Below, in pieces: positions 16,103 to 32,024 of a stretch of 42,675 nucleotides of DNA. The stretch is from Candidatus Woesearchaeota archaeon (lineage in GTDB: Archaea; Nanobdellota; Nanobdellia; Woesearchaeales; UBA525): NCBI GenBank assembly GCA_014874255.1, contig JACWAN010000096.1, forward strand, positions 1 through 42,675. Reading direction: 5' to 3'. Positions within the stretch are counted from its first letter, which is position 1. Each line of letters starts with the position of its first letter. The position numbers and the translations under genes were made by a program. Under the pieces are notes generated by a model. That model saw only the letters and a program-made list of their open reading frames with translations, searched no databases and was not told the DNA's origin.

Positions 16103-16207
16103 GCCAGCCGTTGCGTCCCCGCGTTTTATAAATGTTGTTCAAAGGGCGGTTTTGCCGTCGGCTCCTTTTATTTTTTCAGTCTCCGTTTCCCGTCTCGTCC
16201 TTGAGAA

Positions 16208-16338
16208 CATCATCGCCGCCGTCCACAGGGTGAGCGTCCCGGCCGAGAAAGAAGCGGGTGCGGCGGAGGTCGGCCCCTTCGGGGAGGACCCGCACCTTCG
16301 GGAAAAAAGCGGAGAGCGAACAGGACGCGGCGATGATG
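16208..16338 (+). repeat. Family C rod-hairpin repeat, copy C1
   Basis: CATCATCGCCG...CGGCGATGATG closing stem, apical CCCC-TTCG-GGG; colinear with the reverse complement of 28646-28778. Confidence 0.8.
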
Positions 16339-16347
16339 CGAAAAACA

Positions 16348-17001
16348 TTATTTCCGTCCGACGAGCGCCCTCTTCAGCGAACGCAAGTAGAGATTGCGTG
16401 ACGGCACGACGATCTCTTCCAGCCGCATGCCGAAGGCGTCCGCGAGCCGTCCGGTCTCCAGCAGCCGGAAGCCCCACGCTTTGCTCGCGGCCTTCCCGAC
16501 GGGATCGTCCTTGATGGTCACGAGGAGGAGCGTGCCGCCAGGCCTGAGGACGCGCAGCAGCTCCCGCGCCGCGCGCTCCGTGTCCGGGACGTATTCGAGC
16601 ATGCCCGCGCTCATCACGAGATCGAACTCGCCGTCTCCGAACGGGTGCGGTCCTCCGTCCGGATAGGCGCGTGCCGCGCGCAGGTCGAGCGCGTCCGCTC
16701 CGTAGAGCGCGATCCCCTTCTCTTTCGCGCGCCGCTCCGCCAGTCCGAGCATCTGCGGCGAGCGGTCGAACGCGTGGATGCTCGCGAGCTCGCCCCGTTC
16801 GCGCAGCACGTCGTCGAGCGCGAAGGAGAGCGGGCAGTGGCCGCAGCCCGCATCGAGCACCCTCGCTCCGTCGAGGATGCGCTTCCCGGGCTGCCGGAAC
16901 AACGAGCGGTAGAACCCCTCGTAGCCCGCGAGCGCAGCGCACGCGGCGTAGGTCTTCGAAGCGAACGAACCGTATGCCATCCTCTCGCCCCTTTCGCTCA
17001 T
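16348..17001 (-). CDS. Class I SAM-dependent methyltransferase (UbiE/Methyltransf_11-like)
   Basis: RVLDAGCG, AFDRSPQML, PFGDGEFDLVMS, RVLRPGG. Confidence 0.9.
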   Translation of the reverse strand: MSERGERMAYGSFASKTYAACAALAGYEGFYRSLFRQPGKRILDGARVLDAGCGHCPLSFALDDVLRERGELASIHAFDRSPQMLGLAERRAKEKGIALYGADALDLRAARAYPDGGPHPFGDGEFDLVMSAGMLEYVPDTERAARELLRVLRPGGTLLLVTIKDDPVGKAASKAWGFRLLETGRLADAFGMRLEEIVVPSRNLYLRSLKRALVGRK

Positions 17002-18643: not shown

Positions 18644-19600
18644 ATGTCCATCGATTTGCTTGACCGGAAGATCCTCTACGAGCTCGACCGGAACTGCCGC
18701 GCGACGCACGCACAGATCGCGAAAGCCGTGAAGAGCGGCCGCAACGTCGTCGCCTACCGCATCCGGAAGCTCGAGGAGCAAGGCATCATCCGCGGCTACT
18801 TCGCCGAGATCAACAACCACGCGCTCGGCCTCACCGGCTTCCGCGCCTTCTTCCGTTTCGCCCATCACGACCCTGCCCGGATCGCGGCGTTCTTCGGGGA
18901 AGCGCTCAAGGACCCCCGTGTCGCGTGGTGCTTCTCGGTCAAGGGACAATGGGACGCGGACATCGTCTACTGGGCGAAGAGCCGCTTCGAGTTCTACCGC
19001 CTCCTCGCAGGCCTCAAGACCGCGTTCAGCGATCTCCTCGCCGAGGAACGCGTCGCGGTCATCGTCGACATCTGGCACTTCCCCAAGCGCTACCTCGTCG
19101 GCGACAAGCGAGACAACCACTACCTCTTCAGCGAGACCGACGCGACCGTGACGCCGGAAGAAGGGGCAATCCTCCGAGCGCTCGCCTTCGACAGCCGCAA
19201 GGACATCCTCCGCCTCAGCCGCGAGACGGACCTGAGCGTCAACACCGCGAAGAAATATCTCGCCTCGCTCCTCAAGAAGAAGGTGATCCTCGCCTTCCGC
19301 CCCTTCATCGACATCGCCGCCCTCGGCTACCGGTATTCGCGGCTCCACCTCACGCTCCGCGATCACACCGAGGAGCAGCGGCGCAGCATCCTCACCTTCC
19401 TCTCCCTGGACCCCGACGTCGTCTATCTCGACTTCTACATCAACGGCGCCGACGTCGAGATCGAGTATCACGTGCCTTCGGAGGACGCGCTCGACGCGAA
19501 GATCGACGTGCTCCTCTCGCGCTTCGGCGCCGTCATCGCGGCCTACGAGACCGTCAAGTTCGAGAAGGAGCACGTCGTCCGCTACCTGCCAGGAGCATAG
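18644..19600 (+). CDS. Tandem (double HTH-RAM) Lrp/AsnC family regulator
   Basis: LDRKILYELDRNCR..IAK..VAYRIRKLEEQGII and a second HTH ILRALAFDSRK...KKVILAFRPFID. Probable leaderless start downstream of CTTAAAAATA at 18614-18623. Confidence 0.88.
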   Translation: MSIDLLDRKILYELDRNCRATHAQIAKAVKSGRNVVAYRIRKLEEQGIIRGYFAEINNHALGLTGFRAFFRFAHHDPARIAAFFGEALKDPRVAWCFSVKGQWDADIVYWAKSRFEFYRLLAGLKTAFSDLLAEERVAVIVDIWHFPKRYLVGDKRDNHYLFSETDATVTPEEGAILRALAFDSRKDILRLSRETDLSVNTAKKYLASLLKKKVILAFRPFIDIAALGYRYSRLHLTLRDHTEEQRRSILTFLSLDPDVVYLDFYINGADVEIEYHVPSEDALDAKIDVLLSRFGAVIAAYETVKFEKEHVVRYLPGA

Positions 19601-19604
19601 CGCC

Positions 19605-19769
19605 GGCTCTTCGGCAAATTCGCTTTGCGGTGTTGCCGGCTGCGACCCGTGTCGCTGTGTTCTTCGCGTCAGCGGAGCTCCCCGTAGGGGGCAACCCCCT
19701 CTCCTCCTTCGCTTCATTCTCTGCTACGGGTCGCCCTTTGGCCGGCAACACATCATTTGCCTAAGAGCC
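19605..19769 (-). mobile_element. MITE family B, copy B1 (165 bp)
   Basis: 15-bp TIR GGCTCTT(C/A)GGCAAAT; 9-bp TSD CATAGCGCC at 19596-19604 and 19770-19778. Confidence 0.92.
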
Positions 19770-19825
19770 CATAGCGCCGCAATCTTTATATTGCTCTCGG
19801 AATCCGCTCCGGACAGGTGGGGGCG

Positions 19826-21079
19826 ATGTACGGTCATCTCAAGGAAGCGGACCCGGCGGTCTACGCGATTATGCGGCGCGAGCTCGCCCGCCAGCGCGAA
19901 GGCGCAGAGCTGATCCCGAGCGAGAATCTCGTCTCTTTGCCGGTGCTGGAAGCGCTGGGCAGCGTCTTCACGAACAAGTACAGCGAGGGCTACCCGAAGA
20001 AGCGCTATTACGGCGGGAACGAGTTCATCGACCAGTCAGAGGAACTGGCGATCGAGCGCGCCAAGCAGCTCTTCGGGGCTGAGCACGTCAACGTCCAGCC
20101 CCTTTCCGGGAGCCCGGCGAACATGGCCGCGTACTTCGCGCTGATGGAGCGGGGCGACAAGCTCATGGGCTTGAAGCTCGACCACGGCGGCCACTTGACG
20201 CACGGTCACCCGGTCAACTTCAGCGGCAAGTACTACACGATCGTGCCGTACGAGGTCGACCCGACGACGGAACGTTTGAACTACGACGCGATCGAGGCGC
20301 TCGCGATGAAGGAACGGCCGAAGGTCCTCCTCGCAGGCTTCACCGCGTACCCGCGGGACATCGACTACAAACGTTTCCGGGAGATCGCGGACAGGTGCGG
20401 CGCGTACCTCATGGCGGACATCAGCCACACCGCCGGCCTCATCGCCGGCAAGCAGCTCATGAACCCGGTGCCGTACTGCGACGTCGTCACGACGACGACG
20501 CACAAGACCTTGCGGGGACCGCGCGGCGCGATGATCCTGTGCCGGCAGCAGCACGCGCAAGCGATCGACAAGGCGGTCTTCCCGGGTTTGCAGGGCGGGC
20601 CGCACGAGAACGTCATCGCCGCGAAAGCGGTAGCGTTCGCCGAGGCGCTCAAGCCCGAGTTCCAGGCGTATGCGAAACAAGTCATCGCGAACGCGAAAGC
20701 GCTCGGCGAAGCCCTGACGGCGAGAGGGGTCCGTCTCGTGACCGGCGGCACGGACACGCACCTGCTGCTCGCCGACGTCAGGCCGTTCAGGATCACCGGG
20801 AAAGCCGCCGAGTCGGCGCTCGACAAGGCGGGCATCTACGTCAACAAGAACACGATCCCTTACGACCCGGAGAAACCCTTTGTCACGTCCGGCATCCGGA
20901 TGGGCACTCCCACCTTGACGACGCGCGGGATGAAAGAAGGGGAGATGAAGGTCCTCGGCGGCCTGATCGTCGACGTCCTCGAGAACGCGGAGAACGGAGA
21001 GCGGCTCAAGGGCATCCGGGAACAAGTGCTCGCGCTCTGCAAGCGGTTCCCAATCTACTCCGAGATACAACTCAGTTGA
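19826..21079 (+). CDS. glyA: Serine hydroxymethyltransferase (bacterial type)
   Basis: ELIPSEN, NKYSEGYPKKRYYGG, GGHLTHG, TTTTHKTLRGPRG PLP-lysine motif; AGGTGG SD. Confidence 0.97.
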   Translation: MYGHLKEADPAVYAIMRRELARQREGAELIPSENLVSLPVLEALGSVFTNKYSEGYPKKRYYGGNEFIDQSEELAIERAKQLFGAEHVNVQPLSGSPANMAAYFALMERGDKLMGLKLDHGGHLTHGHPVNFSGKYYTIVPYEVDPTTERLNYDAIEALAMKERPKVLLAGFTAYPRDIDYKRFREIADRCGAYLMADISHTAGLIAGKQLMNPVPYCDVVTTTTHKTLRGPRGAMILCRQQHAQAIDKAVFPGLQGGPHENVIAAKAVAFAEALKPEFQAYAKQVIANAKALGEALTARGVRLVTGGTDTHLLLADVRPFRITGKAAESALDKAGIYVNKNTIPYDPEKPFVTSGIRMGTPTLTTRGMKEGEMKVLGGLIVDVLENAENGERLKGIREQVLALCKRFPIYSEIQLS

Positions 21080-21270
21080 ATGATCAATGCTCCAGAACCG
21101 AAATTCCCAGACTAAAAAGAACCAATACCGAAAAAAAAGAACAATCCGAAACGTAGAACACGAAAATCATTTATTATTACTGATACTCATTATTACTAAT
21201 ATTTTATCATCACCATCATCATTTGATTCATTATCACGAACGTCCACATGACTGACTCCAGGGAACGACG

Positions 21271-22860
21271 ATGAAGCCGCAGAACCAGGACGAGTACACC
21301 GCCGGCGAGCGCGCCATCCTCGCGAAGCACGTCACAGCCATTGACGGCAATGTCTACTGCGTCAAGAACCTCCCGGAAGAAGTGGTCGCCGTCCTCTTCG
21401 CGTACGTCAGCAGGAGCCCGTTGAGCTTCCGCCGCAACCTCCTCAAGCTGATCGGCGAGGGCGAGCTCTACGTCAGGAACGTCACGGACGTCTACGGCGA
21501 GGACGACGCCGGCTACGCGTCCGCGAAAGAGAAGGCGATGAAGTTCCACGACAAATGGGTCGTCGGGTACGGCCACGGCTCGGTCGCGGAGCACGCGGAC
21601 ATCAAGTTCGCCCTCGAGGACGTCTCGATACTCTTCACGAAGGTCCTGGAGGACAACCGGCTCGGCCGCTACACGGAGAAATCGACGCGCTATGTCGAGT
21701 TCGACAAGCAGCATTATCACCGGCCGCACGCGCTCCTCGACGACCCCGTTCTCGGAAAACTCTACGTCGAGGCGTGCGACGCGCTCTTCGACCTGTACGA
21801 GGCGCTCCTCCCGAAGGTGCGCGATTACGTCCGCAGCCGATGGCCCCGCCCCGCGGAGATGCCGGAGCGGCCGTACGAGGCTTCCGTCAACGCGAAGGCG
21901 TTCGACGTCGTCCGCTACGTCTTACCGGCGTCGACGTACACGATGCTCGGCTGCTCGATGAACGCGCGCGTCGCGGAGCACGCGATCACGAAGCTGCTGA
22001 GCCACCCGCTCGAAGAAGTGCGGCTGGTCGGCGAGCGGATGCTCGCAGAAGGCCGCAAGATATGCCCGACGCTGCTGAAGCACGCCGCGCAGAGCGAGTA
22101 CCACACGGAGACGCGCATCGTCATGGACGCCCTCACGAAGAAGCTCCTCACGGGCACGGCGCCGAAGAACGGGAAGCCCGTCACGATCGTCCACTTCGAC
22201 CCGGAAGCCGAAGAGAAACTGATCGCGGCGATGCTCTACGAGCAGACCGAGATGTCGTACGCGGAATTAGTAATCAAAGTAAAAGGACTCGACCAGGAAC
22301 AGAGAAAATCCGTCATCCAATCCTACGTTGCGAAGAAAGGGAAGTTTGATTGGCCGCAGCGCGCGCTCGAGTCCGTCACGTTCACCGTCGACATCCTCAT
22401 GGACTACGGCGCGTTCCGCGACCTGCAGCGTCACCGGATGAACACGCAGCTCAACCAGCGCGTCACGACCGCTCACGGCTACGAGGTCCCGCAGGAGATC
22501 GCGGACGCCGGCCTCGAGAACGAGTTCGCCGTCGGGATGGAGCGCGCGCGGAAGGCGTACGAGACGATCGCGAAGACGCATCCGTTCGAGGCGCAGTACG
22601 TCGTCCCGCTCGCGTACCGGAAACGGACGCTCTTCGTCCTCAACCTGCGGAACCTAGAGCACATCGTCCGCCTGCGTTCGACGCCGCAGGGCCACATCTC
22701 CTACCGGCGGATCGCCCATCAGCTCTATGATGAAGTGGCCGCGCGGAGCCCGCTCCTCGCCTCGCTCCTCACCGTCGACAAGACGGAGCACTACCTCGGC
22801 CGCCTCGACGCGGAGCTCGCTACCGAGAAGAGACGGGAAGCGCTCGAGAAAAGGCAATAA
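21271..22860 (+). CDS. thyX: Flavin-dependent thymidylate synthase, two-domain long form
   Basis: GHGSVAEH, NRLGRYTEKSTRY and RYVLP in domain 1; YGAFRDLQRHR, QYVVPLAY and LRS..QGH.SYR in domain 2. Confidence 0.9.
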   Translation: MKPQNQDEYTAGERAILAKHVTAIDGNVYCVKNLPEEVVAVLFAYVSRSPLSFRRNLLKLIGEGELYVRNVTDVYGEDDAGYASAKEKAMKFHDKWVVGYGHGSVAEHADIKFALEDVSILFTKVLEDNRLGRYTEKSTRYVEFDKQHYHRPHALLDDPVLGKLYVEACDALFDLYEALLPKVRDYVRSRWPRPAEMPERPYEASVNAKAFDVVRYVLPASTYTMLGCSMNARVAEHAITKLLSHPLEEVRLVGERMLAEGRKICPTLLKHAAQSEYHTETRIVMDALTKKLLTGTAPKNGKPVTIVHFDPEAEEKLIAAMLYEQTEMSYAELVIKVKGLDQEQRKSVIQSYVAKKGKFDWPQRALESVTFTVDILMDYGAFRDLQRHRMNTQLNQRVTTAHGYEVPQEIADAGLENEFAVGMERARKAYETIAKTHPFEAQYVVPLAYRKRTLFVLNLRNLEHIVRLRSTPQGHISYRRIAHQLYDEVAARSPLLASLLTVDKTEHYLGRLDAELATEKRREALEKRQ

Positions 22861-22978
22861 AATATAAATCAGGAGATTCTCGTCCCGCCTACCCATAACC
22901 GCGTCTCATCACTGAACGGCATCTCCCTGATGTGCTCTCTCCGAGAAAAAGAGGAATATTTCCGAATAACTCGGAAGA

Positions 22979-23605
22979 CTACTTCTTCCTGACATACATC
23001 CCGACGCCGATGATGAGCAGCACGAGCACCGCTCCCCCGAGGAAGAAGAGGAGCGCGTCGTTCGGGATGAGCGGACCTGCGCTGTTGACGGCGGCTGTGG
23101 GCGCGGCCATCGGCGCCGCGAATGCCGCCGCCTTGGGCGCGGCCTCTGCCGTGAGCGTCGGAGCCGCCTCTCCCGCCATCATCAATCGCGGTAGCTGCGC
23201 GGGCGTGAGGAGGTCGCTCGCGATCTTGAGGATGATGGCCGCCGCCGCGGTGATGAGCGCCGCGGGGAGCAGCCCTTTCAGCTTGTGGAGAAAAGACTCT
23301 TTCTCCTCTTCCGGCGCGATGATGATGTACTTGTTCGCGAGCCGGTAGTGCAGTACCTCTTTCCCCTTCTCGCTGTAGTGGTACTCGTCCGCGACGACCA
23401 GCTTGGCGTCGACGAGCTGCTTCAGGTTGTAGTGGACCGTGCTCAACGGGAGGCCTAAAGCCCTCGCGATCTCGGTCTCCGTGCCGTCCTTGCCGCCGCT
23501 GAAGTGCTTGAGCAGCTTCGTGCACGTCTCGTTGCTGATGACCTGCGCGAGCTTCTTCGCTTTCTCCTCGTTGAGGGAGACCAGCATGAAGGGTTCGTCC
23601 GCCAT
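22979..23605 (-). CDS. ArsR-like winged-HTH regulator with two C-terminal TM helices
   Basis: LAQVISNETC..LL..TETEIARALGLPLSTVHYNLKQL..YSEKGKEV..Y; TM, Ala/Pro-rich linker, TM, then RKK. Confidence 0.85.
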   Translation of the reverse strand: MADEPFMLVSLNEEKAKKLAQVISNETCTKLLKHFSGGKDGTETEIARALGLPLSTVHYNLKQLVDAKLVVADEYHYSEKGKEVLHYRLANKYIIIAPEEEKESFLHKLKGLLPAALITAAAAIILKIASDLLTPAQLPRLMMAGEAAPTLTAEAAPKAAAFAAPMAAPTAAVNSAGPLIPNDALLFFLGGAVLVLLIIGVGMYVRKK

Positions 23606-23708
23606 GCCGCCGGAGAAGCGCAGGTGATATTTAAAGCGGTCGATGGGTGCGGACCTGCTTGAAGCCTTGCCGCAAGACATTTAATCGCGGAGCCGTTCCC
23701 CTTCTCCG

Positions 23709-24317
23709 ATGATAACGCTGTCGACGCCTCCTTCGGTGCTGCGCGACAACCGCTTCAACGAGGATGGCCTCGCTGAGACTGAGCAGGGGCTGCTCGTCCC
23801 GGCCTACATAGGGAGCCAGCTCGGCTTCAACGTGCCTGGTCGGTTCTTCTTGGAGAAGGAGTTCCATCCCCGGCTCCGCGCGGCAGGCGTGCTGCCCCTC
23901 TGCCCGTTCACGGCCTGCGCCGAGTACCTCGACGCCGGGCAGCGCGCGCGGGCGAAGACGTTCGCCGAGGCGTATGAGTTCTGGGACGCCTTCAACCACC
24001 TCATCGGCCCGGTCAATTACGGGATGCTGATGCCGCGCGCCAAGTTCATGATCGCAATCCTCGACGGCGGCCACGTGGTGGACGATGGCGTCGCGGCGGA
24101 GATCGGCTACTTCGCCGTCAAGCAGGGCTCGGCGTTCGGCATCCGGAGCGATTTCCGTCTCAGCGAGAACCTCGCGTCTTCGGTCAACGCGGCGGTACGC
24201 AACTTCCTCGACTATGATCCCCAATATCACGGACGCTATTTCGTCGGCGACGACGCGTACGACGAGGCGTTCGTCGGGATCGCGGATCTCTCCCGTCGCC
24301 TGCGCAACGCCGCGTAG
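23709..24317 (+). CDS. Nucleoside 2-deoxyribosyltransferase/DNPH1-like protein
   Basis: AYIGSQLGF, AILDG..VDDGVAAEIGY (catalytic Glu motif), GIRSDFR. Confidence 0.8.
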   Translation: MITLSTPPSVLRDNRFNEDGLAETEQGLLVPAYIGSQLGFNVPGRFFLEKEFHPRLRAAGVLPLCPFTACAEYLDAGQRARAKTFAEAYEFWDAFNHLIGPVNYGMLMPRAKFMIAILDGGHVVDDGVAAEIGYFAVKQGSAFGIRSDFRLSENLASSVNAAVRNFLDYDPQYHGRYFVGDDAYDEAFVGIADLSRRLRNAA

Positions 24318-24343
24318 CGGTCCCTAGATGGAGCGTTGTTCTT

Positions 24344-25450
24344 CTACTTCCGCATCTTGCGGTGCATGGCGAGGCTGAACGCGAGGAGCAGGAGGATGAC
24401 GCCCACGACGAAGACGGAGAGCTCGATGAGGCTCCGTGCCGACGTGCCGGGGAGCTGCTGCTTAATCCGCGCGGTGAGCATCTCCTGCTTCGCGTCCGTG
24501 TTCGACTTGATGGTGAGGACGAAGCCGTGCTCGCCGGTGGCCCCTTTGTCCGCGTAGATGGTGAGGATGCCCTGCTGCGAGCCGCCCGCCGGGACGACGA
24601 TCAGCGAACGCGGCTTGATCTCGTAGCTGCCCCAGCCGTCCGTGCCCTGCACGCTGAGCACGTAGGCCTGGCTCTCCTGCTCGTTGTTCTGGATCGTGAA
24701 GGGGTAGTCGCCCCCGTTCACCGGGTCGATGTCCTGGATGTTGAGGATATTGACGATGGATTTGCCCGCGGTGGGCGACTCGGCGGCGCACAGCCCCGAC
24801 TGCGCAGTCCCCATCTTCGTCGGGATGTAGAACGACTCCTGCACCCCCGGAGATTTCGGCCAGTCGACGTAGAACACCACGTCGTACTCGCTCTTCGGGA
24901 CGCACGCGGGCAGCCGGAGGAAGAACTGCTCGTGCACCTGGTCGCCGCTCTTGATGACGTCGAGGTACTGCTTCTGCTCCAGCCCCAGCTCGGGCACCTG
25001 GACCGTGAACTCGAGGTTGCGGAGGTCGTACGAGCGGTAGTTGGTCAGCGTGGCTGTGACGGTGAACGCCCGCCCTTCCAGCACGACGGGCGGGTCGATC
25101 GCGATGCTGTCCACGACGAGGTCGCATGCGTCGCCCAGGCCGTTGTGGTTCTGGTCCGCCTGGTCCGGGTTCGCGACGCCGACGCAGTTGTCCACGATGT
25201 CCGGCACCTTGTCGCAGTCCAGGTCGGCGAGGAGCGCGCCTTTCGCGTCGGCGATGTAGCACCCGCCGAAGGTCTGCTGCGGCGCGAAGGGCGGCGTGGC
25301 GTGGCTCTTGTTGTTCAGGACGTAGTCTTGCTGCCAGCTCGGCACGGTGTCGCCGCCGTATGGGCCGTAGTAGTCGCTGTAGACTGCCGCGGCGACGGGC
25401 GCTGCCGCTACGATGAGCAGGACGATGACCGCGAGGAGCGTGCGCATCAC
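24344..25450 (-). CDS. Secreted, membrane-anchored surface protein with thrombospondin type 3 repeats and Ig-like (CARDB-like) domains
   Basis: Signal peptide; DLDCDKVPDIVDNCVGVANPDQADQNHNGLGDACD; beta-rich domains; C-terminal TM and basic tail. Confidence 0.85.
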   Translation of the reverse strand: MMRTLLAVIVLLIVAAAPVAAAVYSDYYGPYGGDTVPSWQQDYVLNNKSHATPPFAPQQTFGGCYIADAKGALLADLDCDKVPDIVDNCVGVANPDQADQNHNGLGDACDLVVDSIAIDPPVVLEGRAFTVTATLTNYRSYDLRNLEFTVQVPELGLEQKQYLDVIKSGDQVHEQFFLRLPACVPKSEYDVVFYVDWPKSPGVQESFYIPTKMGTAQSGLCAAESPTAGKSIVNILNIQDIDPVNGGDYPFTIQNNEQESQAYVLSVQGTDGWGSYEIKPRSLIVVPAGGSQQGILTIYADKGATGEHGFVLTIKSNTDAKQEMLTARIKQQLPGTSARSLIELSVFVVGVILLLLAFSLAMHRKMRK

Positions 25451-25594
25451 CTTCCTGATTAAAGGGCTAGTATTTAAAAACTTTTCTAATAAATAGTCAC
25501 TTTAGAGTGGTATATAACTTACTCCTTCCTCTCCTCTCGTGCCCTCCAGCCCCCTGAGGGAATCCTTTTAAATGACGCTTCCTCCCTGCCGTGC

Positions 25595-26503
25595 ATGAGG
25601 ATCCTCATCACCGGCGGCGCGGGCTTCATCGGCTCGAATCTGGCGGAGCACCTCCTCGCGAAAGGGCATGCCGTCACAGCGTTCGACAATCTGAGTTCCG
25701 GGAAGAAGGAGAACCTCCCTCCCGGAGCCGTGCTCATCAAGGGCGACGTCAGGGACACGAACGCGGTCGCGAACGCGATGGCGGGCCAGGACGCGGTCGT
25801 CCACCTGGCGGCGGAGGTCTTCGTCGCCAAGACGATCGAGGACCCTGCGCTCGCAGAGCAGGTGAACGTCCTCGGCACGATCAACGTCCTCCAGGCGGCC
25901 AGACAAGCGGGCGTCAAGAAGGCCGTCCTCGCTTCCAGCGCCGCCATCTACGGGGACGAACCGACCGTGCCGACGACGGAATCGGAACGGCCACGGCCGA
26001 TGAGCCCGTACGCGATCACGAAGCTTGCGATGGAGGACTACGCCGTGTTCTACGCATCCAACGGTTTGCCGACGTGCTGCCTCCGGTTCTTCAACGTCTA
26101 CGGGCCGAAGCAGGACCCGAAGAGCCAGTACTCGGCCGCGATCCCCGCGTTCATCACGCGCAGCCTGGAAGGCGAGCCGCTCACCGTCTACGGCGACGGC
26201 CTCCAGACGCGCGATTTCATCTCCGTCGGCGACGTCTGCCGCGCCGTCGAGCTTGCCTTGACGAAAGGGAGCGGCACGTGCAACGTCGCCACCGGGAAGA
26301 GCGTCACGGTCAAGGCGCTCGCCGGGATGATCGTCAGGCTCACCGGGAGCAAGAGCGCGATCGTCCACGCCCCCGCGCGCGCCGGCGACCCGCGGACGAG
26401 CCTCGCCGACGTCACAAAGGCGAAGAAACAGCTTGGTTTCGTCGCGGCGACGAGCCTCGAGGAAGGGCTGAAGAAGACGGTCGCGTCCTACAAGAAGCGT
26501 TGA
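25595..26503 (+). CDS. NAD-dependent epimerase (UDP-glucose/GlcNAc 4-epimerase-like)
   Basis: ITGGAGFIGS, ASSAAIYG, SPYAITK (YxxxK), RFFNVYGP, GDGLQTRDFI. Confidence 0.93.
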   Translation: MRILITGGAGFIGSNLAEHLLAKGHAVTAFDNLSSGKKENLPPGAVLIKGDVRDTNAVANAMAGQDAVVHLAAEVFVAKTIEDPALAEQVNVLGTINVLQAARQAGVKKAVLASSAAIYGDEPTVPTTESERPRPMSPYAITKLAMEDYAVFYASNGLPTCCLRFFNVYGPKQDPKSQYSAAIPAFITRSLEGEPLTVYGDGLQTRDFISVGDVCRAVELALTKGSGTCNVATGKSVTVKALAGMIVRLTGSKSAIVHAPARAGDPRTSLADVTKAKKQLGFVAATSLEEGLKKTVASYKKR

Positions 26504-26552
26504 GCCGCTGTTCGTCTTGGGTCTTCGCTCTTTTCTTTTTTTCTTATTCGTC

Positions 26553-26720
26553 GGCTCTTAGGCAAATGAGGTGTTGCCGGCCAAAGGGCGACCTGTAGCG
26601 ATAAGAAGAAGCGGAGAGTTGAGGGGGATGCCCCATCCGGGGCTTCAACGATGCAGCGAAGAACGCAGCGACACGGGTCGCAGCCGGCAACACCGTCGAA
26701 GGCGAATTTGCCTAAGAGCC
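26553..26720 (+). mobile_element. MITE family B, copy B2 (168 bp)
   Basis: Perfect 15-bp TIR GGCTCTTAGGCAAAT; 9-bp TSD TTATTCGTC at 26544-26552 and 26721-26729. Confidence 0.93.
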
Positions 26721-26874
26721 TTATTCGTCGCTGCACGAGCACGTACCGCAGTCGCTGCTGCTCCTGCGCACGAATCAAAGATTCGTTGCGCCGCTGTGCG
26801 CGGATATCGTCACGACGCGAGGAAGGACAGTGTCTCGTGCAGAAAAAGTCGCTTCTTAAAGAAAGACGGTCTGC

Positions 26875-27579
26875 TCAGCTCTTTATCTCCCGTCCTTTCC
26901 TGCGTTTCATCCGGATGATATCCCGCAGGATGCGGAACGCGCCGAAGACGGACTGTCCCTTCTGCGTGGCGTACTCGTCGTACGTGATCGTCACGGGCAC
27001 CTCGACGTGGCGCAGCCCTTTCAGCTTCACCTCGTAGACGATCTCCGAGGCGTGCGCCATCCGGTCCTGCGCGATCTCGATCTTCTCGGCAGCCGTCCGC
27101 GAGAGTGCGCGGAACCCGTTATGCACGTCCGTCAATTTGACGCCGAGGAGGACGCGCTCGACGAGAAGCGAGCCCTTGAGCGTGACCCATTTGTACCACG
27201 GGATGCCCGGCGCTTTCCCGAGGAAGCGCGAGCCGAGCGCGATGTCCGCCTCGCCGTTCAGGACGGGCGCGACCAATCGTTTGATCTCTGCCGCTTTGTG
27301 CTGGCCGTCGCCGTCGAACGTGACGATGACGTCCGCTCCTTTCTTGAGGGCCGCCCGGATGCCGGTCCGCAGGCTGGCGCCCTGGCCCTGGTTGACGGGA
27401 TGCCGGATGACGGTCGCGCCGGCCTTCCTCGCCGCCGCTCCGGTCTCGTCCTTGCTGCAGTCGTCCACGACGATGACGTCCCGGTAGCCGTGTTTCGCGA
27501 GGCCCTTGACGACCGTCGAGATCCGCTTCTCCTCGTTGTACGCGGCGACGACGATGAGGATGCGTGGCTTCGTCATCAT
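26875..27579 (-). CDS. GT2 glycosyltransferase (DPM1-like, lipid-phosphate sugar transferase)
   Basis: AYNEE, VVDDCSKD, NQGQGASL, TFDGDGQH, GSRF, TDVHNGFRA. Confidence 0.92.
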   Translation of the reverse strand: MMTKPRILIVVAAYNEEKRISTVVKGLAKHGYRDVIVVDDCSKDETGAAARKAGATVIRHPVNQGQGASLRTGIRAALKKGADVIVTFDGDGQHKAAEIKRLVAPVLNGEADIALGSRFLGKAPGIPWYKWVTLKGSLLVERVLLGVKLTDVHNGFRALSRTAAEKIEIAQDRMAHASEIVYEVKLKGLRHVEVPVTITYDEYATQKGQSVFGAFRILRDIIRMKRRKGREIKS

Positions 27580-28040
27580 TCAGCCTCCACCCCGCGTCGT
27601 ATCGTCGTGATCCGCTCTTCCGTCAGCGTGCGGACGAGACGCTTCATCTCCAGGACGAAATCGACGAGCGCTGCGTGGTCGAGCGGCACTTCCTTGTTTT
27701 TCAGGTAGTATTGGTTGTCAATGCGAAGCTCCTTGTCCGCGATGAGCATCGCCGCGGTCCCTTTCGTGAGCAGCCCTTCCTGTTCGAGGGCTTCTGCGAC
27801 GGCGAGCGTGCATTCGTGGATCTCCGATCGGATGCCGAGCCGCATCATCACCGCGTAGAACGCGAAATACTCACAGTAGTATTTCGTCGTGGCAAGCCAC
27901 ATCCGCGAGCGCCCTTCAATCCGTTCCAGTATTTCGAGCGTCTCCTCCGAGTTCCGGAGGTATTCCTGCGCGAGGTTCCCGTTCGGCCTGACGAGGCGGA
28001 TGCCCCTCTCTTTCTTCCTGCACCAGTCCAGCGTCACCAT
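27576..28040 (-). CDS. HEPN domain protein
   Basis: YYCEYFAFYAV..LGIRSEIHECT, KELRIDNQYY; coupled downstream of the MNT gene. Confidence 0.8.
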   Translation of the reverse strand: MVTLDWCRKKERGIRLVRPNGNLAQEYLRNSEETLEILERIEGRSRMWLATTKYYCEYFAFYAVMMRLGIRSEIHECTLAVAEALEQEGLLTKGTAAMLIADKELRIDNQYYLKNKEVPLDHAALVDFVLEMKRLVRTLTEERITTIRRGVEAE

Positions 28041-28594
28041 GCCAGCCACCGTACCGCATCCTCGCTCCCGCGGAGGAGCAGATGGTTCTTAATGATTTCG
28101 CGCTTCAGGGCGGAGGTTATCCGGTCGAACCGTTTGACGTGGATGAGATGGACCTCTTTCCGGTAGCGTTCGGAAAAGGCGGTGAACGGGATGCTCTCCC
28201 CAATGAGCAGCAGGTCGAGGTCGTGCGCTTTCTTGACGCTCGTGGTCGCGGAGCCGAAGAGGATCGCGGCCGTCCCGTCCGGGAGCTTCTCGCGGAGCAG
28301 CGTCACGAGCTCGAGGAGGAGCGGTTCCTCTTCGCAGCGCGCGAGCAGCTTTGTCTTCTCCGCGATGATGAGGTGCTCTGTCAGGCCGGGGTGCTCCTTG
28401 TTGAGTCGGAAGAACGTCATGTTTCCTTTCTGCCGCTTCTTGAGGATGCCGTCGGCGACGAGCGGCGCCAGCTTCAGCCGGAGCGTCGTGTGCGGCATCC
28501 CTTGCTCTTTCGCGAGCGCGGAGAGGTGGAGCTCCTCGTCCGGGTTTGAGAGGAACGGTTCGAGGACAGATTTTTCTGTCATTTTTTTGACCAT
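28034..28594 (-). CDS. HTH-fused minimal nucleotidyltransferase (MNT)
   Basis: N-terminal wHTH (ELHLSALAK..HTTLR..LVADGIL), then ILFGS.....DLDLLLI and EIIKNH. Confidence 0.85.
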   Translation of the reverse strand: MVKKMTEKSVLEPFLSNPDEELHLSALAKEQGMPHTTLRLKLAPLVADGILKKRQKGNMTFFRLNKEHPGLTEHLIIAEKTKLLARCEEEPLLLELVTLLREKLPDGTAAILFGSATTSVKKAHDLDLLLIGESIPFTAFSERYRKEVHLIHVKRFDRITSALKREIIKNHLLLRGSEDAVRWLAW

Positions 28595-28645
28595 TCTGTT
28601 AATATAATGACAATTACTATTTAAGATTGTCGGTTCGAGCAGGGG

Positions 28646-28778
28646 CATCATCGCCACGCCCGGTTCGCTCTCCGCTTCAGTCTCGGATAGTGCGGGTCCT
28701 CCCCGTAGGGGGCATCCCCGACCGCACTCGCTTCGTTCTTCGCTTCACCACTCACCCCTAAGGGCGGCGGCGATGATA
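28646..28778 (-). repeat. Family C rod-hairpin repeat, copy C2
   Basis: Reverse complement aligns to 16208-16338 (GGGTGAG, GAAGCG.GTGCGG, CGGGGAGGACCCGCAC, AAGCGGAGAGCGAAC, GGCGATGATG). Confidence 0.8.
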
Positions 28779-28828
28779 CCTGAGAGAAGAATGAAGAGAG
28801 AAAAATAAAAGCTGTTTTTCACTCAGGT

Positions 28829-31762
28829 TCACGCGAGGCCGAGCGCCTGCATCTTCGACCAGTCGACCTTCCAGACGATGATCCGCGTGCCCATGAAGTC
28901 CGTGACGTCGCTGAACTTCTGGAACGCGCCGGTGCCGTCGCCGTCGAGGAAGAAGAGCCGCGTGAAGAGCGAGCCGGCGTTCTCCGGCGCTGTCAGGAGG
29001 ACGCGCGGGTTCGCGGGGTCGCGCAGGTCGACGAGGAACGATTCGCCGAGCGTGCCGCCGGTCTCCACCGTCTCGACGGTGCCGTTCAGCGCGAGCACGA
29101 TGCTCGTCGGCCTGACGTCGTTGTTCTGCCCGGTGAGCTGGCCCTGGGCGTTGTAGAACCCGAGCGAGACGAAGGACCGGTTCACCGCGGACTCGTTCAG
29201 GACGAAGCCGTTGAGGACGATGTTCACGCCCTGCTGCTGGCCCACCTGGACGTTGAGCGTGCAGAGGTAGACGGAGTCGTTCTGCTGGGAGTGGACGCAG
29301 TTGCTCCACGAGGAGGACGGGTAGCCGGGCCACGGCGCGATCCAGTTGTTGACCGAGGTCTGGTCGCCGAGGGTCTGCAGCTGGTAGTAGAGGTTCTTCG
29401 CGTCCGCCTCGCTCAGGTTGTACTTCGCCGCCATCGCCGGGATCGCGGTGTCCTGCGGCTGGGCGCGGAAGTTGACGTACGCGTCGGCCCGCGTGAAGTT
29501 CCAGGAGCCGAAGTGGCCCCAGACGCCGCCCTTGCCGACCATGTCGCCGCTCGTGATGAAATAATCGTCCGGCGGCTGGCAGACCGTGTGGTTCAGCACG
29601 GTCTGCGCCTGTTCCTCTGAGAGGCCGTTGGCGAGGAGCGTCTGGTGCGCCTGCGCCGGCGGCATCATGATGATCCGCTTGGTGAGCATGATCGCTTGGT
29701 ACTGGTCGTGGCCGGGTAGGCCGTCCTGGACGTCCTGCGCGCCCTGGTAGTTGCCGCAGTCCATCATCCGGAGGATGCCGAGCGCCTCGGTCTCGTTCGG
29801 CGTGAGGAGCGCCTCGCCGATCCAGTGCGCGTCCGATCCCATCTGGGAGGCGCCGTCGAACGTGACCCGCCGGTCCGCGATGTCCTTGAACCAGTGGCCG
29901 AAGTCCCACCACGAGTTGATGATCGCGTCAGGCGCGGTGTTCTGCTTGATGTTCGTGAGCGTGTCGTACCATGGCTTCGTGATGATTGGCGCGGACTGCT
30001 GCCCGGCCTGGTAGCCCTGGATCGTGATCGGGATGAGCGCCAGCGAGAGGATGACGAAGAGCGCCGGCACGACCCACGCCTTCGAGAGGTTGAGATGCCC
30101 GACCAGCCAGTCCTTCAGGATGCTGTAGACCGCGCCGGCGGAGATGGCCGCTCCCACGATGAGCGGCGGGAGCACCATGATGATGAACCGGACGCCTTTC
30201 GTCATGGTGAAGATCGACGCTGCCAGCCAGACGGCGATGAAGATCGCGTACTTCACGTCGATGGCGCGGTCGTCCTTGAGGAGGAGGAGGCCGCCGACGA
30301 TGACCGGCAGGCCCATGACCGCGAGGAACCAGAGGATGGAGAGCGACGTGCCTGCCGGGGAGGTGAGGTAGAGGAAGACCGCGAGGCCGAAGCCGAGCAG
30401 CGTCCAATCCTTCCACCGCAGCTCTTTGCGCGGCACGAGGGAGAAGAGCATCCCCATCAGGCCGAGGATGAAGATGAGCTCGCCCCCGGTCGCGTTGACG
30501 ATGTCCGCGATGCTCGGCTGGTTCAGTTCAGCGACGGTGGTGAGGACGTTCGGCCAGATCTGCCCCGCCTGCGCCGCCGCCTTGAAGTCTGCGGTGACCG
30601 CGAACGCGCTGACCGGACCCTGGATGAAATTCGGGAGCCCGACGAAGAGCGCGATGAAGAGCCCGTCGACGATGAGGAAGCCGGCGAGCATGATGAGCGA
30701 CCACGTCACCTCCTTGTTCCTGGCGAGGCTCTTGAGGTCGCCTTTCTGGAGGAAGTGCCGCAGGACCTGGTAGATGAAATAGGAGACGACGACGATGAGG
30801 AAGATGTCGAAGAAGAACCACCAGTACCCCCACGTCAGGGCGAACAGCCCGAAGACGAGGCCGGAGGCGACGAGCCAGATGGAACGTTTGAGCCACGTCC
30901 CCGCTTCGAACGCCTCGAGGAAGAGCCACGCGATCGTGATGGGGAAGAAGAGCTGCAGTACGTGCGTCGACGCGTAGCCCGCTGCCGATTGGGTGATGTA
31001 CGACGGATGCACGGCGAGGAGCAGCGCGGCGAAGAAGCCTGCGAAGAGGCCTTCCCGCCAGCCCATGAAGAACGCGGGGATGACTGCGAGTGCCGCGAAC
31101 AGGAGGGGCATCCAGAAGAGGGTGTACATCGGCGTCGTCTGGAAGCCCAAGGCAGTTTCTGCCTTGTAGACGTACGCGGTGAACGTGGTGTACGCGTCCC
31201 AGTTCGTCGGGACGCCGAGCGGGGCGAGCATGTGCATGTTCCACGGCACCCCGTCGACCACCTTGTCGCCCGGGTACCCGTTCTTGACGATCTGCTCGAC
31301 CTTGAGGAGGTTGTAGTACGTGTCGATGTCCGGCAGGAGGGTGTGGCCGTTGCTGTCCTCCAGCTGCGACTTGAAGTAAGCCGCTGTTTGTGTGATCTGG
31401 CTGTCGATCTCCTTCTTGGTGGCGGGGTCCGCCAGCGCTTTCTGGTACTGCTGCGTGACGAGCTGCTGCTTGTTCGCCGACGGGAGGTTGGGGTACTGCT
31501 GGCTGATCTGCGCGCCGATAGAGTTCTGGATGTTCGCGTCGACCGAGCTCTTCGCCCATTGCTGCGTGACCGGCAGCCAGTACGTGGGGGCGCGGAACAG
31601 GACGGAGACGAGGAGGGGGAGGAGGAGGAGCGCGATGGTGAAGCCGACGACAATCTTCCGCTCGTGCCGCTCGACGAACGCGCCGGTCTTCTCGGCGAAC
31701 GCCGAGGGCTCGTGCCGCTTCGGCTTCTCCTTGCTCTCCGTCAGCAGTCTCTTGCGTGCCAC
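28829..31762 (-). CDS. aglB: Archaeal oligosaccharyltransferase (STT3 family)
   Basis: DIDTYY (DxD), TTVAEL (TIxE-like), SWWDFGHW (WWDYG motif), DG, DMVGK; many TMs; GTG start with GGGGTGG SD and TTTTAAA box. Confidence 0.95.
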   Translation of the reverse strand: MARKRLLTESKEKPKRHEPSAFAEKTGAFVERHERKIVVGFTIALLLLPLLVSVLFRAPTYWLPVTQQWAKSSVDANIQNSIGAQISQQYPNLPSANKQQLVTQQYQKALADPATKKEIDSQITQTAAYFKSQLEDSNGHTLLPDIDTYYNLLKVEQIVKNGYPGDKVVDGVPWNMHMLAPLGVPTNWDAYTTFTAYVYKAETALGFQTTPMYTLFWMPLLFAALAVIPAFFMGWREGLFAGFFAALLLAVHPSYITQSAAGYASTHVLQLFFPITIAWLFLEAFEAGTWLKRSIWLVASGLVFGLFALTWGYWWFFFDIFLIVVVSYFIYQVLRHFLQKGDLKSLARNKEVTWSLIMLAGFLIVDGLFIALFVGLPNFIQGPVSAFAVTADFKAAAQAGQIWPNVLTTVAELNQPSIADIVNATGGELIFILGLMGMLFSLVPRKELRWKDWTLLGFGLAVFLYLTSPAGTSLSILWFLAVMGLPVIVGGLLLLKDDRAIDVKYAIFIAVWLAASIFTMTKGVRFIIMVLPPLIVGAAISAGAVYSILKDWLVGHLNLSKAWVVPALFVILSLALIPITIQGYQAGQQSAPIITKPWYDTLTNIKQNTAPDAIINSWWDFGHWFKDIADRRVTFDGASQMGSDAHWIGEALLTPNETEALGILRMMDCGNYQGAQDVQDGLPGHDQYQAIMLTKRIIMMPPAQAHQTLLANGLSEEQAQTVLNHTVCQPPDDYFITSGDMVGKGGVWGHFGSWNFTRADAYVNFRAQPQDTAIPAMAAKYNLSEADAKNLYYQLQTLGDQTSVNNWIAPWPGYPSSSWSNCVHSQQNDSVYLCTLNVQVGQQQGVNIVLNGFVLNESAVNRSFVSLGFYNAQGQLTGQNNDVRPTSIVLALNGTVETVETGGTLGESFLVDLRDPANPRVLLTAPENAGSLFTRLFFLDGDGTGAFQKFSDVTDFMGTRIIVWKVDWSKMQALGLA

Positions 31763-31825
31763 ACAACCACCCCGCTTGGTTGTTTCCGGCAGCGACAGAC
31801 GATTTAAAAACTTAATGAAAAGGTT

Positions 31826-31990
31826 GGCTCTTAGGCAAATGGTGTGTCGCCAGCCAAAGGGCGAGGCATGCAAAGAAAACGGCGGAAGAGGTCGGGGGGT
31901 TGCCCCATCCGGGGGTGACCGGTGCAGTGACTTTCCGAGCGATTGCCGAGCAGCCGGAGACACCGCCGGAGGCGAATTCGCCTAAGAGCC
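31826..31990 (+). mobile_element. MITE family B, copy B3 (165 bp)
   Basis: TIR GGCTCTTAGGCAAAT / ATTCGCCTAAGAGCC; 9-bp TSD GAAAAGGTT at 31817-31825 and 31991-31999. Confidence 0.92.
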
Positions 31991-32024
31991 GAAAAGGTTC
32001 TTGTTAGGAAGTTCTCTTTCGAAG

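Follow-up and report, generated by a model that had tools for sequence, protein, structure and literature searches.

Several families of short, gene-less mobile elements are known in bacteria whose general design is close to that of the elements described here. Chunjie, a transposable element of the miniature inverted-repeat type (MITE) from Geobacter uraniireducens, is non-coding, has terminal inverted repeats (TIRs) of ∼20 bp and 9-bp direct repeats, and occurs in many copies with very stable predicted folds, and bcr1 of the Bacillus cereus group is a mobile element of ∼155 bp that makes target duplications and in which compensatory changes keep a double-stranded fold (both in the available excerpts of PMC3184786). 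The Correia or NEMIS elements of Neisseria are abundant MITEs of ∼100–160 bp that lie beside promoters and contain a functional central site (PMC10969869, in excerpt). We analyzed a stretch of 42,675 nucleotides from a Candidatus Woesearchaeota archaeon (assembly GCA_014874255.1, contig JACWAN010000096.1, positions 1 to 42,675; the window hereafter), which holds three elements of 165–168 bp that we call family B, each with 15-bp inverted ends and its own exact 9-bp target duplication. Family B resembles Chunjie, as the excerpts present it, in being short and non-coding and in having TIRs, 9-bp repeats, many copies, and a stable predicted fold; Chunjie, however, is bacterial and A+T-rich, and the excerpts of PMC3184786 report neither covariation nor a conserved core common to families that differ in their ends. 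As presented there, bcr1 differs in its 5-bp duplications, its bacterial host, its transcription, and its constraint at the RNA level, whereas the pair statistics obtained here look strand-symmetric. The Correia elements differ in their TA duplication, their IHF site, and their own promoters, and the excerpts of PMC10969869 describe no order-wide covarying rod.

Our literature search returned no description of this element, of its apex motif, or of TATA-adjacent targeting in archaea, and no report of a conserved covarying core that families with different ends have in common throughout an order. A published census includes a 'Woesearchaea genome' with 105 cMITEs per Mb, and its supplementary tables and sequences may include these elements (PMC11602168, in excerpt). 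In the usual view, MITEs are gutted insertion sequences (ISs) whose interior is free to drift; here the interior is the conserved part. The explanation that we favor overall, with moderate confidence, is that family B is a MITE with a fold-back core, mobilized by a clade of the IS5 family, constrained at the level of DNA, and inserted at the edges of promoters.

Family B in the window and in its genome

The three copies and their duplications lie as follows.

19596–19604, unstranded: left target-site duplication of copy 1, CATAGCGCC, which includes the TAG stop of the upstream HTH_24 gene
19605–19769, minus strand: family B copy 1, inverted, 165 bp long, from a 6-member subfamily; TIRs at 19605–19619 (1 mismatch) and 19755–19769
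19770–19778, unstranded: right target-site duplication of copy 1, CATAGCGCC
26544–26552, unstranded: left target-site duplication of copy 2, TTATTCGTC, with a T-rich run before it at 26530–26537
26553–26720, plus strand: family B copy 2, 168 bp, both TIRs exact, apex at 26623–26642, from a 13-member subfamily; between convergent epimerase and GT2 genes
26721–26729, unstranded: right target-site duplication of copy 2, TTATTCGTC
31817–31825, unstranded: left target-site duplication of copy 3, GAAAAGGTT
31826–31990, plus strand: family B copy 3, 165 bp, apex at 31894–31914; between divergent aglB/STT3 and GT4 genes
31991–31999, unstranded: right target-site duplication of copy 3, GAAAAGGTT

A preliminary description of this DNA had placed the three copies, with their 15-bp TIRs and exact 9-bp duplications, at just these positions. 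The terminal 15-mer GGCTCTTAGGCAAAT occurs six times in the window at 0–1 mismatch; shuffled sequences average 0.62 occurrences, and none of 100 reaches six. Copy 1 points the opposite way from copies 2 and 3, with an alignment score of 112 when reversed versus 36.5 in the direct orientation and a match to the covariance model (CM) on the minus strand, so its apex appears on the plus strand as the reverse complement (19680–19699). This orientation had been missed in the preliminary description, but because the stems are palindromic its stem comparisons hold. The strong difference between interiors that it had reported is real in that they are divergent, at 63–75% pairwise identity, yet they can still be aligned. 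Of the stems it had quoted, GTGTT/AACAC versus GTGTC/GACAC is present, as are GGAG/CTCC, GTTGA/TCAAC, and GGTC/GACC and the apex; GCGACCCGT/ACGGGTCGC versus GCGAGGCA/TGCCGAGC is present too, except that GCGAGGCA/TGCCGAGC pairs only with a central tandem G.A/A.G mismatch and is thus not fully paired. The predicted RNA folds of copies 1 and 2 are rods (−81.0 kcal/mol, z −6.7, and −85.5 kcal/mol, z −7.3, respectively); in copy 3, stem 1 has two uncompensated changes, stem 2 is of the tandem G.A type, and the minimum-energy RNA fold is not the rod (z −4.1). The consensus of the subfamily to which copy 2 belongs forms Watson–Crick pairs at 47 of 47 positions, with a member mean of 45.0. A small open reading frame (ORF) within the element was considered and rejected, since ATG-led frames stop after ∼10 codons in copies 2 and 3.

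The host assembly (G000), that of a DPANN archaeon, comprises 1.29 Mb in 122 contigs at 61.7% G+C and is 81.5% complete. The genome-wide count of ends that had been proposed as a check gives 127 exact motifs and 230 loose ones (up to three mismatches). There are 76 end pairs, 54 of them 160–172 bp long; an exact 9-bp duplication accompanies 33 of the 76, and one with a single mismatch accompanies eight more. With an iterated profile search, 238 related hairpin-core loci are found, covering 34.6 kb or 2.7% of the assembly, and many contigs begin or end inside element copies. Family B is a very abundant MITE of this archaeon. Two inverted family B copies on contig C69 (10562–10726 and 15638–15802) have swapped reverse-complementary flanks, AACCCAAGA/CCATCAATA versus TCTTGGGTT/TATTGATGG, a pattern that, judged from the flanking sequences, is the signature of a putative ∼5 kb inversion through recombination between the two copies. 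The elements account for no less than 2.7% of the ∼1.5-Mb genome, fragment its assembly, and have apparently caused at least one inversion, so they matter for the binning and comparison of DPANN genomes.

Outside the host assembly, exact end motifs occur in four relatives (29 in G001, 5 in G006, 1 in G003, and 3 in G018) and in none of 36 others. Among 185,579 species representatives, one other has the exact end-pair pattern, the congener Candidatus Woesearchaeota archaeon UBA153, with four matches; no match to this pattern was found in viral contigs and no blastn match of the element in phages or plasmids. Empty sites, another of the proposed checks, were recovered in part. In the nearest relative, G006, whose aglB is 91% identical, copy 3 is absent from the orthologous aglB–GT4 spacer and seven of the nine target bases (the first seven) are kept; the spacer past the site has also diverged, so the empty site is not perfectly clean. 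At the copy 1 site the relatives align only from the glyA start onward, without the upstream HTH gene there, and at the copy 2 site the G006 contig stops too soon for a comparison. The stretch is present in four DNA runs, from two studies, that are labeled as mine drainage metagenome; all four are kept as contigs, which break at the elements, and none was found to contain a junction that bypasses an element. Read depth in the element bins of run X1 is 13–27 times that of the flanks, a figure that is not a copy number. We infer that family B was active in the not-distant past.

The proposed diversification into subfamilies is borne out by at least five subfamilies with three or more copies. In four of five, the subfamily consensus pairs better than the members do; in the fifth, of four copies, the consensus has 34 Watson–Crick pairs versus a member mean of 34.5. 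Private substitutions are ∼2 times denser in the 15-bp ends (15 in 30 columns versus 32 in 135; Fisher p = 0.02, in the alignment of 54 copies designated A1 below). The genes that flank the elements in the window encode the HTH_24 regulator, serine hydroxymethyltransferase, ThyX, an epimerase, glycosyltransferases, and the STT3/AglB oligosaccharyltransferase.

The core and its covariation

Family B is not alone in its interior. The profile search yields 53 internal-only matches in the host assembly, with other ends or none, and a core of ∼130 nt with three Watson–Crick stems can be defined, around which the outer 15–20 bp vary by family. The plan is the same in all families: stem 1, a left-arm bulge of 5–7 nt opposite a single right-arm A, stem 2, a large purine-rich internal loop, stem 3, and an apex of the form G5-N3-C4-NTNC-G4. 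Family A, with ends GGCCGCGATGAAAA and 9-bp duplications, shares this core, as do a variant with ends GGCCGCGTTGAAAG, another family with CATCATCGCCGCC-type ends, and several further types. Family C, in turn, has family B ends and exact 9-bp duplications around an unrelated interior and is 134 or 223 bp long (G000 contigs C54, 923–1056; C82, 860–993; C98, 5269–5491; C108, 3951–4174; and others). Since the core occurs with other ends and family B ends occur with an unrelated interior, ends and core are separable modules. Longer variants of 204–280 bp carry extra sequence in or near the apex or central loop (C17, 10252–10470; C28, 4436–4713; C89, 567–846; C30, 1926–2107; and others), and some of them share a GAGTCATACGAG-containing segment with the 223-bp family C elements. 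The window itself holds two weaker members.

16196–16355, plus strand: weaker rod-core element with CATCATCGCCGCC-type ends and the same apex and stem plan, CM E = 2e-4
28646–28774, minus strand: weaker rod-core element with CATCATCGCCGCC-type ends, CM E = 5e-5, between a small gene and the aglB 3′ end

Neither of these has a recognizable target duplication, and both are probably older members of the superfamily.

The core extends well beyond the host genome. CM matches are found in four of seven congeners (G001, G003, G005, and G006), and the CM did not find the core in G002, G004, and G007, which are 93%, 82%, and 86% complete. In the order, 21 of 150 other genomes have it by CM (20 of 149 without the unpublished G149), counts that are lower bounds given that 19 candidates were scored per genome under strict filters. 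A loose regular expression for the apex had given 225 matches versus 81–100 in shuffles and was replaced by the profile and CM searches. The apex is present in all 11 order-level loci inspected; an exact 9-bp duplication together with TIRs was found automatically in four of these, and in others TIRs were identified by eye. In G003, G005, G016, G025, and G033 the copies bear ends and duplications of their own, and the end in G025 is within two mismatches of metagenomic IS ends at loci L141, L160, and L162. A core shared across the order with exchanged ends is, in our view, very probable. Family B would then be one branch of an order-wide MITE superfamily that has the fold-back core in common, with outer ends that would match those of different ISs within the IS5-family clade.

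Covariation of the stems was scored in three alignments. A1 is a MAFFT alignment of 54 family B copies with a structure of 32 interior pairs drawn by hand, the RNAalifold structure being poor; A3 is a CM alignment of 90 cores, the 54 of family B and 36 with other or no ends; and A6 is a CM alignment of 30 cores from other genomes. Paired cells amount to 86.5%, 88.9%, and 87.3% in A1, A3, and A6, respectively, and 13, 23, and 28 of the 32 pairs have changed on both sides. The corresponding scores are 0.248, 0.401, and 0.628, versus 0.105, 0.127, and 0.171 in shuffles and at most 0.078, 0.086, and 0.139 when the structure is slid along the alignment; in none of the three alignments was any of 500 shuffles as high as the observed value. 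The covariation of the stems, which had been proposed from three copies, is real, and in these larger alignments it passes both the shuffle and the slide controls. The cross-genome result in A6 is the strongest because the fold there is retained despite complete turnover of the stems, and through such turnover the apex keeps its sequence. Fold and apex have thus persisted over at least 20 published genomes, through stem turnover, end exchange, and a GC content of the copies that ranges from 43% to 73%, which argues that selection in this non-autonomous DNA transposon acts on something besides the TIRs.

Probable mobilizing transposase and choice of target

No transposase gene is present in the window by PF01609 (DDE_Tnp_1), in agreement with the preliminary description, and the single PF01609 gene of the assembly lies on contig C66 (69.4 bits). 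It belongs to an IS of 894 bp (loci L005/L006, 125–1018) with a 277-aa ORF, family A ends, and the 9-bp duplication ATCACCGGC, the only transposase-bearing IS in the assembly. Homologues of the C66 transposase occur in 12 of 41 genomes; those of the relatives are 35–41% identical and reside in ISs of ∼0.9 kb with other ends. A script identified candidate TIR pairs in 57 of 80 metagenome loci that encode relatives of the protein, delimiting ISs of 888–1060 bp, and 9-bp duplications flank 11 of these 57. Typical ends are GGCTCTGTTGAAAATC, GGCTCTGTCCTAAATC, and GGCTCTGTAGAAATCC; most start with GGCTCT or GGCT followed by an A-rich AAAT-type tract, and the termini in the clade are of the GGCTCT.../GGCCGC... 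type. The family B end GGCTCTTAGGCAAAT fits the clade pattern. The C66 IS sits 9–10 bp after a solo family-A-type right end, a same-target arrangement, and has a family B copy 700 bp downstream.

DDE transposition with 9-bp duplications, as had been proposed, is supported by these ends and duplications, and we hold it as highly probable that the MITE is moved by an IS5-family transposase. A DDE enzyme of this clade would act in trans on the gene-less family B, and the partner IS would be ∼0.9–1.0 kb long, encode a protein of ∼280 aa, and have GGCTCT...AAAT termini and 9-bp duplications. True TIRs and 9-bp duplications contrast with the hairpin-end elements of Y1/HUH enzymes (REP/REPIN, IS200/IS605 derivatives), which have subterminal hairpins and neither TIRs nor target duplications; Y1 transposases were not searched for. 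The proposed link to the IS5/IS903 group holds at the level of the IS5 family. IS903 has GGC termini, and its group enters only through these, the length of the duplication, and a partly similar target. The best NCBIfam model for the clade transposases is IS5_2, with scores of 124.7, 139.1, and 118 that stay below its cut-off of 140, and among 72,556 plasmids a tblastn search with the C66 protein turned up a single haloarchaeal match and no IS903. We would file the putative partner of family B, as judged from these comparisons, as an IS5-family member that is IS903-like in behavior and outside the IS903 group assignment.

The choice of target was examined at 45 elements with duplications, for which the pre-insertion sites were reconstructed. 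An AT-rich, TATA-like 8-mer lies 6–7 bp from the 9-bp duplication in 40 of the 45 sites (both sides in 7, left only in 18, right only in 15), compared with a genome-wide background in which 4.5% of 8-mers are equally AT-rich (p about 5e-37). Weaker signals, T/T/Y at −4 to −2 and A at +11/+12, adjoin the duplication. These signals resemble the inner part of the palindromic, AT-rich IS903 target pattern WTTYA-N9-TRAAW (PMC2577343, Table 1, the table being the part available), in which the duplication is likewise 9 bp long, whereas the strong AT box stands 6–7 bp away and does not adjoin the duplication as in IS903. A gene start, crudely called, follows 17 of 47 boxes at a distance of 0–60 bp, the geometry of an archaeal TATA box. 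Two boxes of this kind are present in the window, before glyA and aglB.

19785–19792, plus strand: TATA-like box TTTATATT, 6 bp past the copy 1 duplication and 25 bp before the start of the serine hydroxymethyltransferase gene (glyA) at 19817
31803–31810, minus strand: TATA-like box TTTAAAAA, 6 bp from the copy 3 duplication, conserved in the relative G006; probably the aglB promoter

Divergent spacers hold more than their share of elements (30 of 94 versus 162 of 890). At least seven pairs of elements, often with different end families, stand exactly 9 bp apart and share one duplication (G000 contigs C114, 1126–1465; C30, 3001–3340; C69, 10562–10901; C20, 9775–10155; C72, 1–349; C98, 5269–5621; C77, 14241–14582), so the same target is used repeatedly. 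Taken together, the data suggest that insertion targets the upstream edge of core promoters. The transposase would insert 6–7 bp from the AT-rich box, just upstream of the core promoter, which would leave the promoter intact and make the same 9 bp a repeated target. If confirmed, targeting of promoter edges would be a new safe-haven strategy in archaea, with possible rewiring of promoters. Copy 1 nearly fills its spacer, as it begins 4 nt past the regulator stop and ends 15 bp before the TATA-like box of glyA.

Constraint at the level of DNA or RNA

The preliminary description had attributed the covariation to selection on an RNA or single-stranded DNA fold. The covariation stands, but to read it as selection on an RNA fold goes too far. 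Wobbles are rare (∼30 of 802 paired cells in A6), and in A3 the G:U cells (75) are about as frequent as the A:C cells (68; binomial p = 0.62). Elements are oriented at random relative to their neighbors, 41 in the same and 37 in the opposite direction as a gene ending alongside and 57 and 53 for a gene starting alongside. Private substitutions are blind to the structure, with 0.22 per column in stems and 0.25 in loops (Fisher p = 0.86), and 13 of 14 private singletons in stems weaken a pair. From these results, and from the better pairing of the consensus in four of five subfamilies, we infer that the constraint is strand-symmetric and falls on the DNA as it transposes, and that it does not reflect an RNA function in the host. 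The core would act as DNA: either supercoiled DNA would form a cruciform, or a single strand, whichever of the two, would form a hairpin; the G/C apex mini-hairpin would nucleate the fold, and the snap-back would juxtapose, for the transposase, both ends of an element that is too short to loop. Selection would act only on copies that still transpose, so that the founders of subfamilies would keep compensated stems and inserted copies would decay neutrally. That such a DNA fold-back is the reason for the covariation is a tentative proposal, plausible though somewhat short of probable.

Several points weigh against this reading. A3 and A6 were aligned to the structure of the model itself, which biases the pair counts toward it, and the shuffles ignore relatedness; the copies are not independent events, of which there are few within family B. 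The singletons are small in number (47 in all), and the tests of orientation and promoters use gene calls from a crude, home-made scoring of ORFs. No autonomous IS with the exact ends of family B was found in the host assembly (81.5% complete), in 40 relatives, or in 80 metagenome loci, so the partner is deduced from the end consensus only. A G/C-rich center is not usually expected to ease cruciform extrusion. The element also has a polarity, fixed by the bulge, which is always on the same arm, and by the G-C-G apex, and this polarity is accompanied by differences between the strands: predicted stability is higher for the forward strand in 74 of 92 cores (mean difference 5.3 kcal/mol under RNA parameters); the unpaired regions of this strand are 68–81% purine in family B and non-B cores alike; and tandem G.A/A.G mismatches in a CGAG context, C.T/T.C on the other strand, occur in 48 of 90 cores.

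These strand differences would fit a core that is a functional structured RNA, in which the forward strand is transcribed from neighboring promoters or by read-through, folds into the rod, and binds a protein through the apex and purine-rich loops, to the benefit of the host (stability, regulation) or of the element itself. The strong covariation in all three alignments and an apex that is invariant across the order while all else changes are equally in line with an RNA, and bcr1, transcribed and with compensatory changes at the RNA level, offers a precedent (PMC3184786, in excerpt). Such an RNA is nevertheless unlikely in our assessment, given the scarcity of wobbles and the parity of G:U and A:C, the lack of orientation bias relative to adjacent genes, and private mutations that occur in stems and loops at similar frequency and almost always disrupt a pair. 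The elements, moreover, lie mostly upstream of promoters and outside obvious transcripts, and Rfam 15 gave no match at the gathering score in the window and none at E up to 1 for 10 cores. Two more specific RNA-like roles were rejected: a kink-turn at the bulge, since the G.A pairs lie two bp from the bulge and are Watson–Crick in half of the families, and a terminator, against which speak the random orientation and the low share of convergent spacers (14 of 94 versus 180 of 890).

The lack of purifying selection on the stems of inserted copies, together with mismatch types that show no strand asymmetry, would also be compatible with no selection on structure at all. The palindrome would then be kept by intrastrand template switching, by gene conversion between the arms, or by repeated rebirth through inverted duplication of an arm, and a change in one arm would be copied onto the other and mimic covariation. 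The changes in A6 agree with this in that almost all are double-sided, with very few one-sided intermediates. Only one of the 14 private stem changes is compensated, however, so conversion is infrequent on the time scale of copy decay. Copying between arms would also make them symmetrical, whereas several asymmetric features recur in different families and genomes, namely the left-arm bulge, the purine loops of both arms, an additional hairpin close to the right end, and the G-C-G apex, and the apex is conserved where the stems have completely turned over. We regard this mutational origin of the pairing as improbable.

A different view of the apex takes it as double-stranded DNA, a site for a dimeric DNA-bending protein of the host or associated with the transposase that would join the ends or tune the adjacent promoter, as does the IHF site of the neisserial Correia elements, with the stems being secondary. 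Two overlapping short palindromes (G4-N3-C4 and C4-N4-G4) are present in the apex, and no other part keeps its sequence throughout the order; the central position of the apex, at the same distance from both ends and from the adjacent promoter whichever way the element points, agrees with the absence of an orientation bias; the Correia elements, with their functional IHF site, set an example (PMC10969869, in excerpt). This view leaves the covariation of 28 of 32 stem pairs unexplained, no candidate protein was identified, and we consider it very improbable.

A bolder reading, which we consider possible but doubtful, would make the rod more than cargo, namely an ancient self-propagating structured nucleic-acid module of DPANN archaea that survives by acquiring, time and again, the ends used by whatever IS5-family transposase its host has active. 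No less speculatively, the invariant G5-C4-G4 apex of this module, a folded ligand in the form of a DNA hairpin or of RNA, would be read by a protein of the host or associated with the transposase, and the module would home to the upstream edge of archaeal core promoters. The CORE-type superfamilies of short interspersed nuclear elements (SINEs) in animals are non-autonomous and combine a conserved central core with exchanged parts that the machinery recognizes, although those are retrotransposed RNA elements of eukaryotes. The likeness is a conceptual analogy only, as the rod-core elements are DNA transposons with TIRs and target duplications. If true, the module would be the prokaryotic counterpart of the conserved-core SINE superfamilies and part of the first promoter-targeting transposon system described in archaea.

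The apex can form two alternative hairpins. At loci L221 (in G025) and L247 (in G122), the outer pair of the C4/G4 apex hairpin has changed on both sides, to TCCC...GGGA. In the sequences at hand this is the only compensatory hint in favor of the second of the two hairpins.

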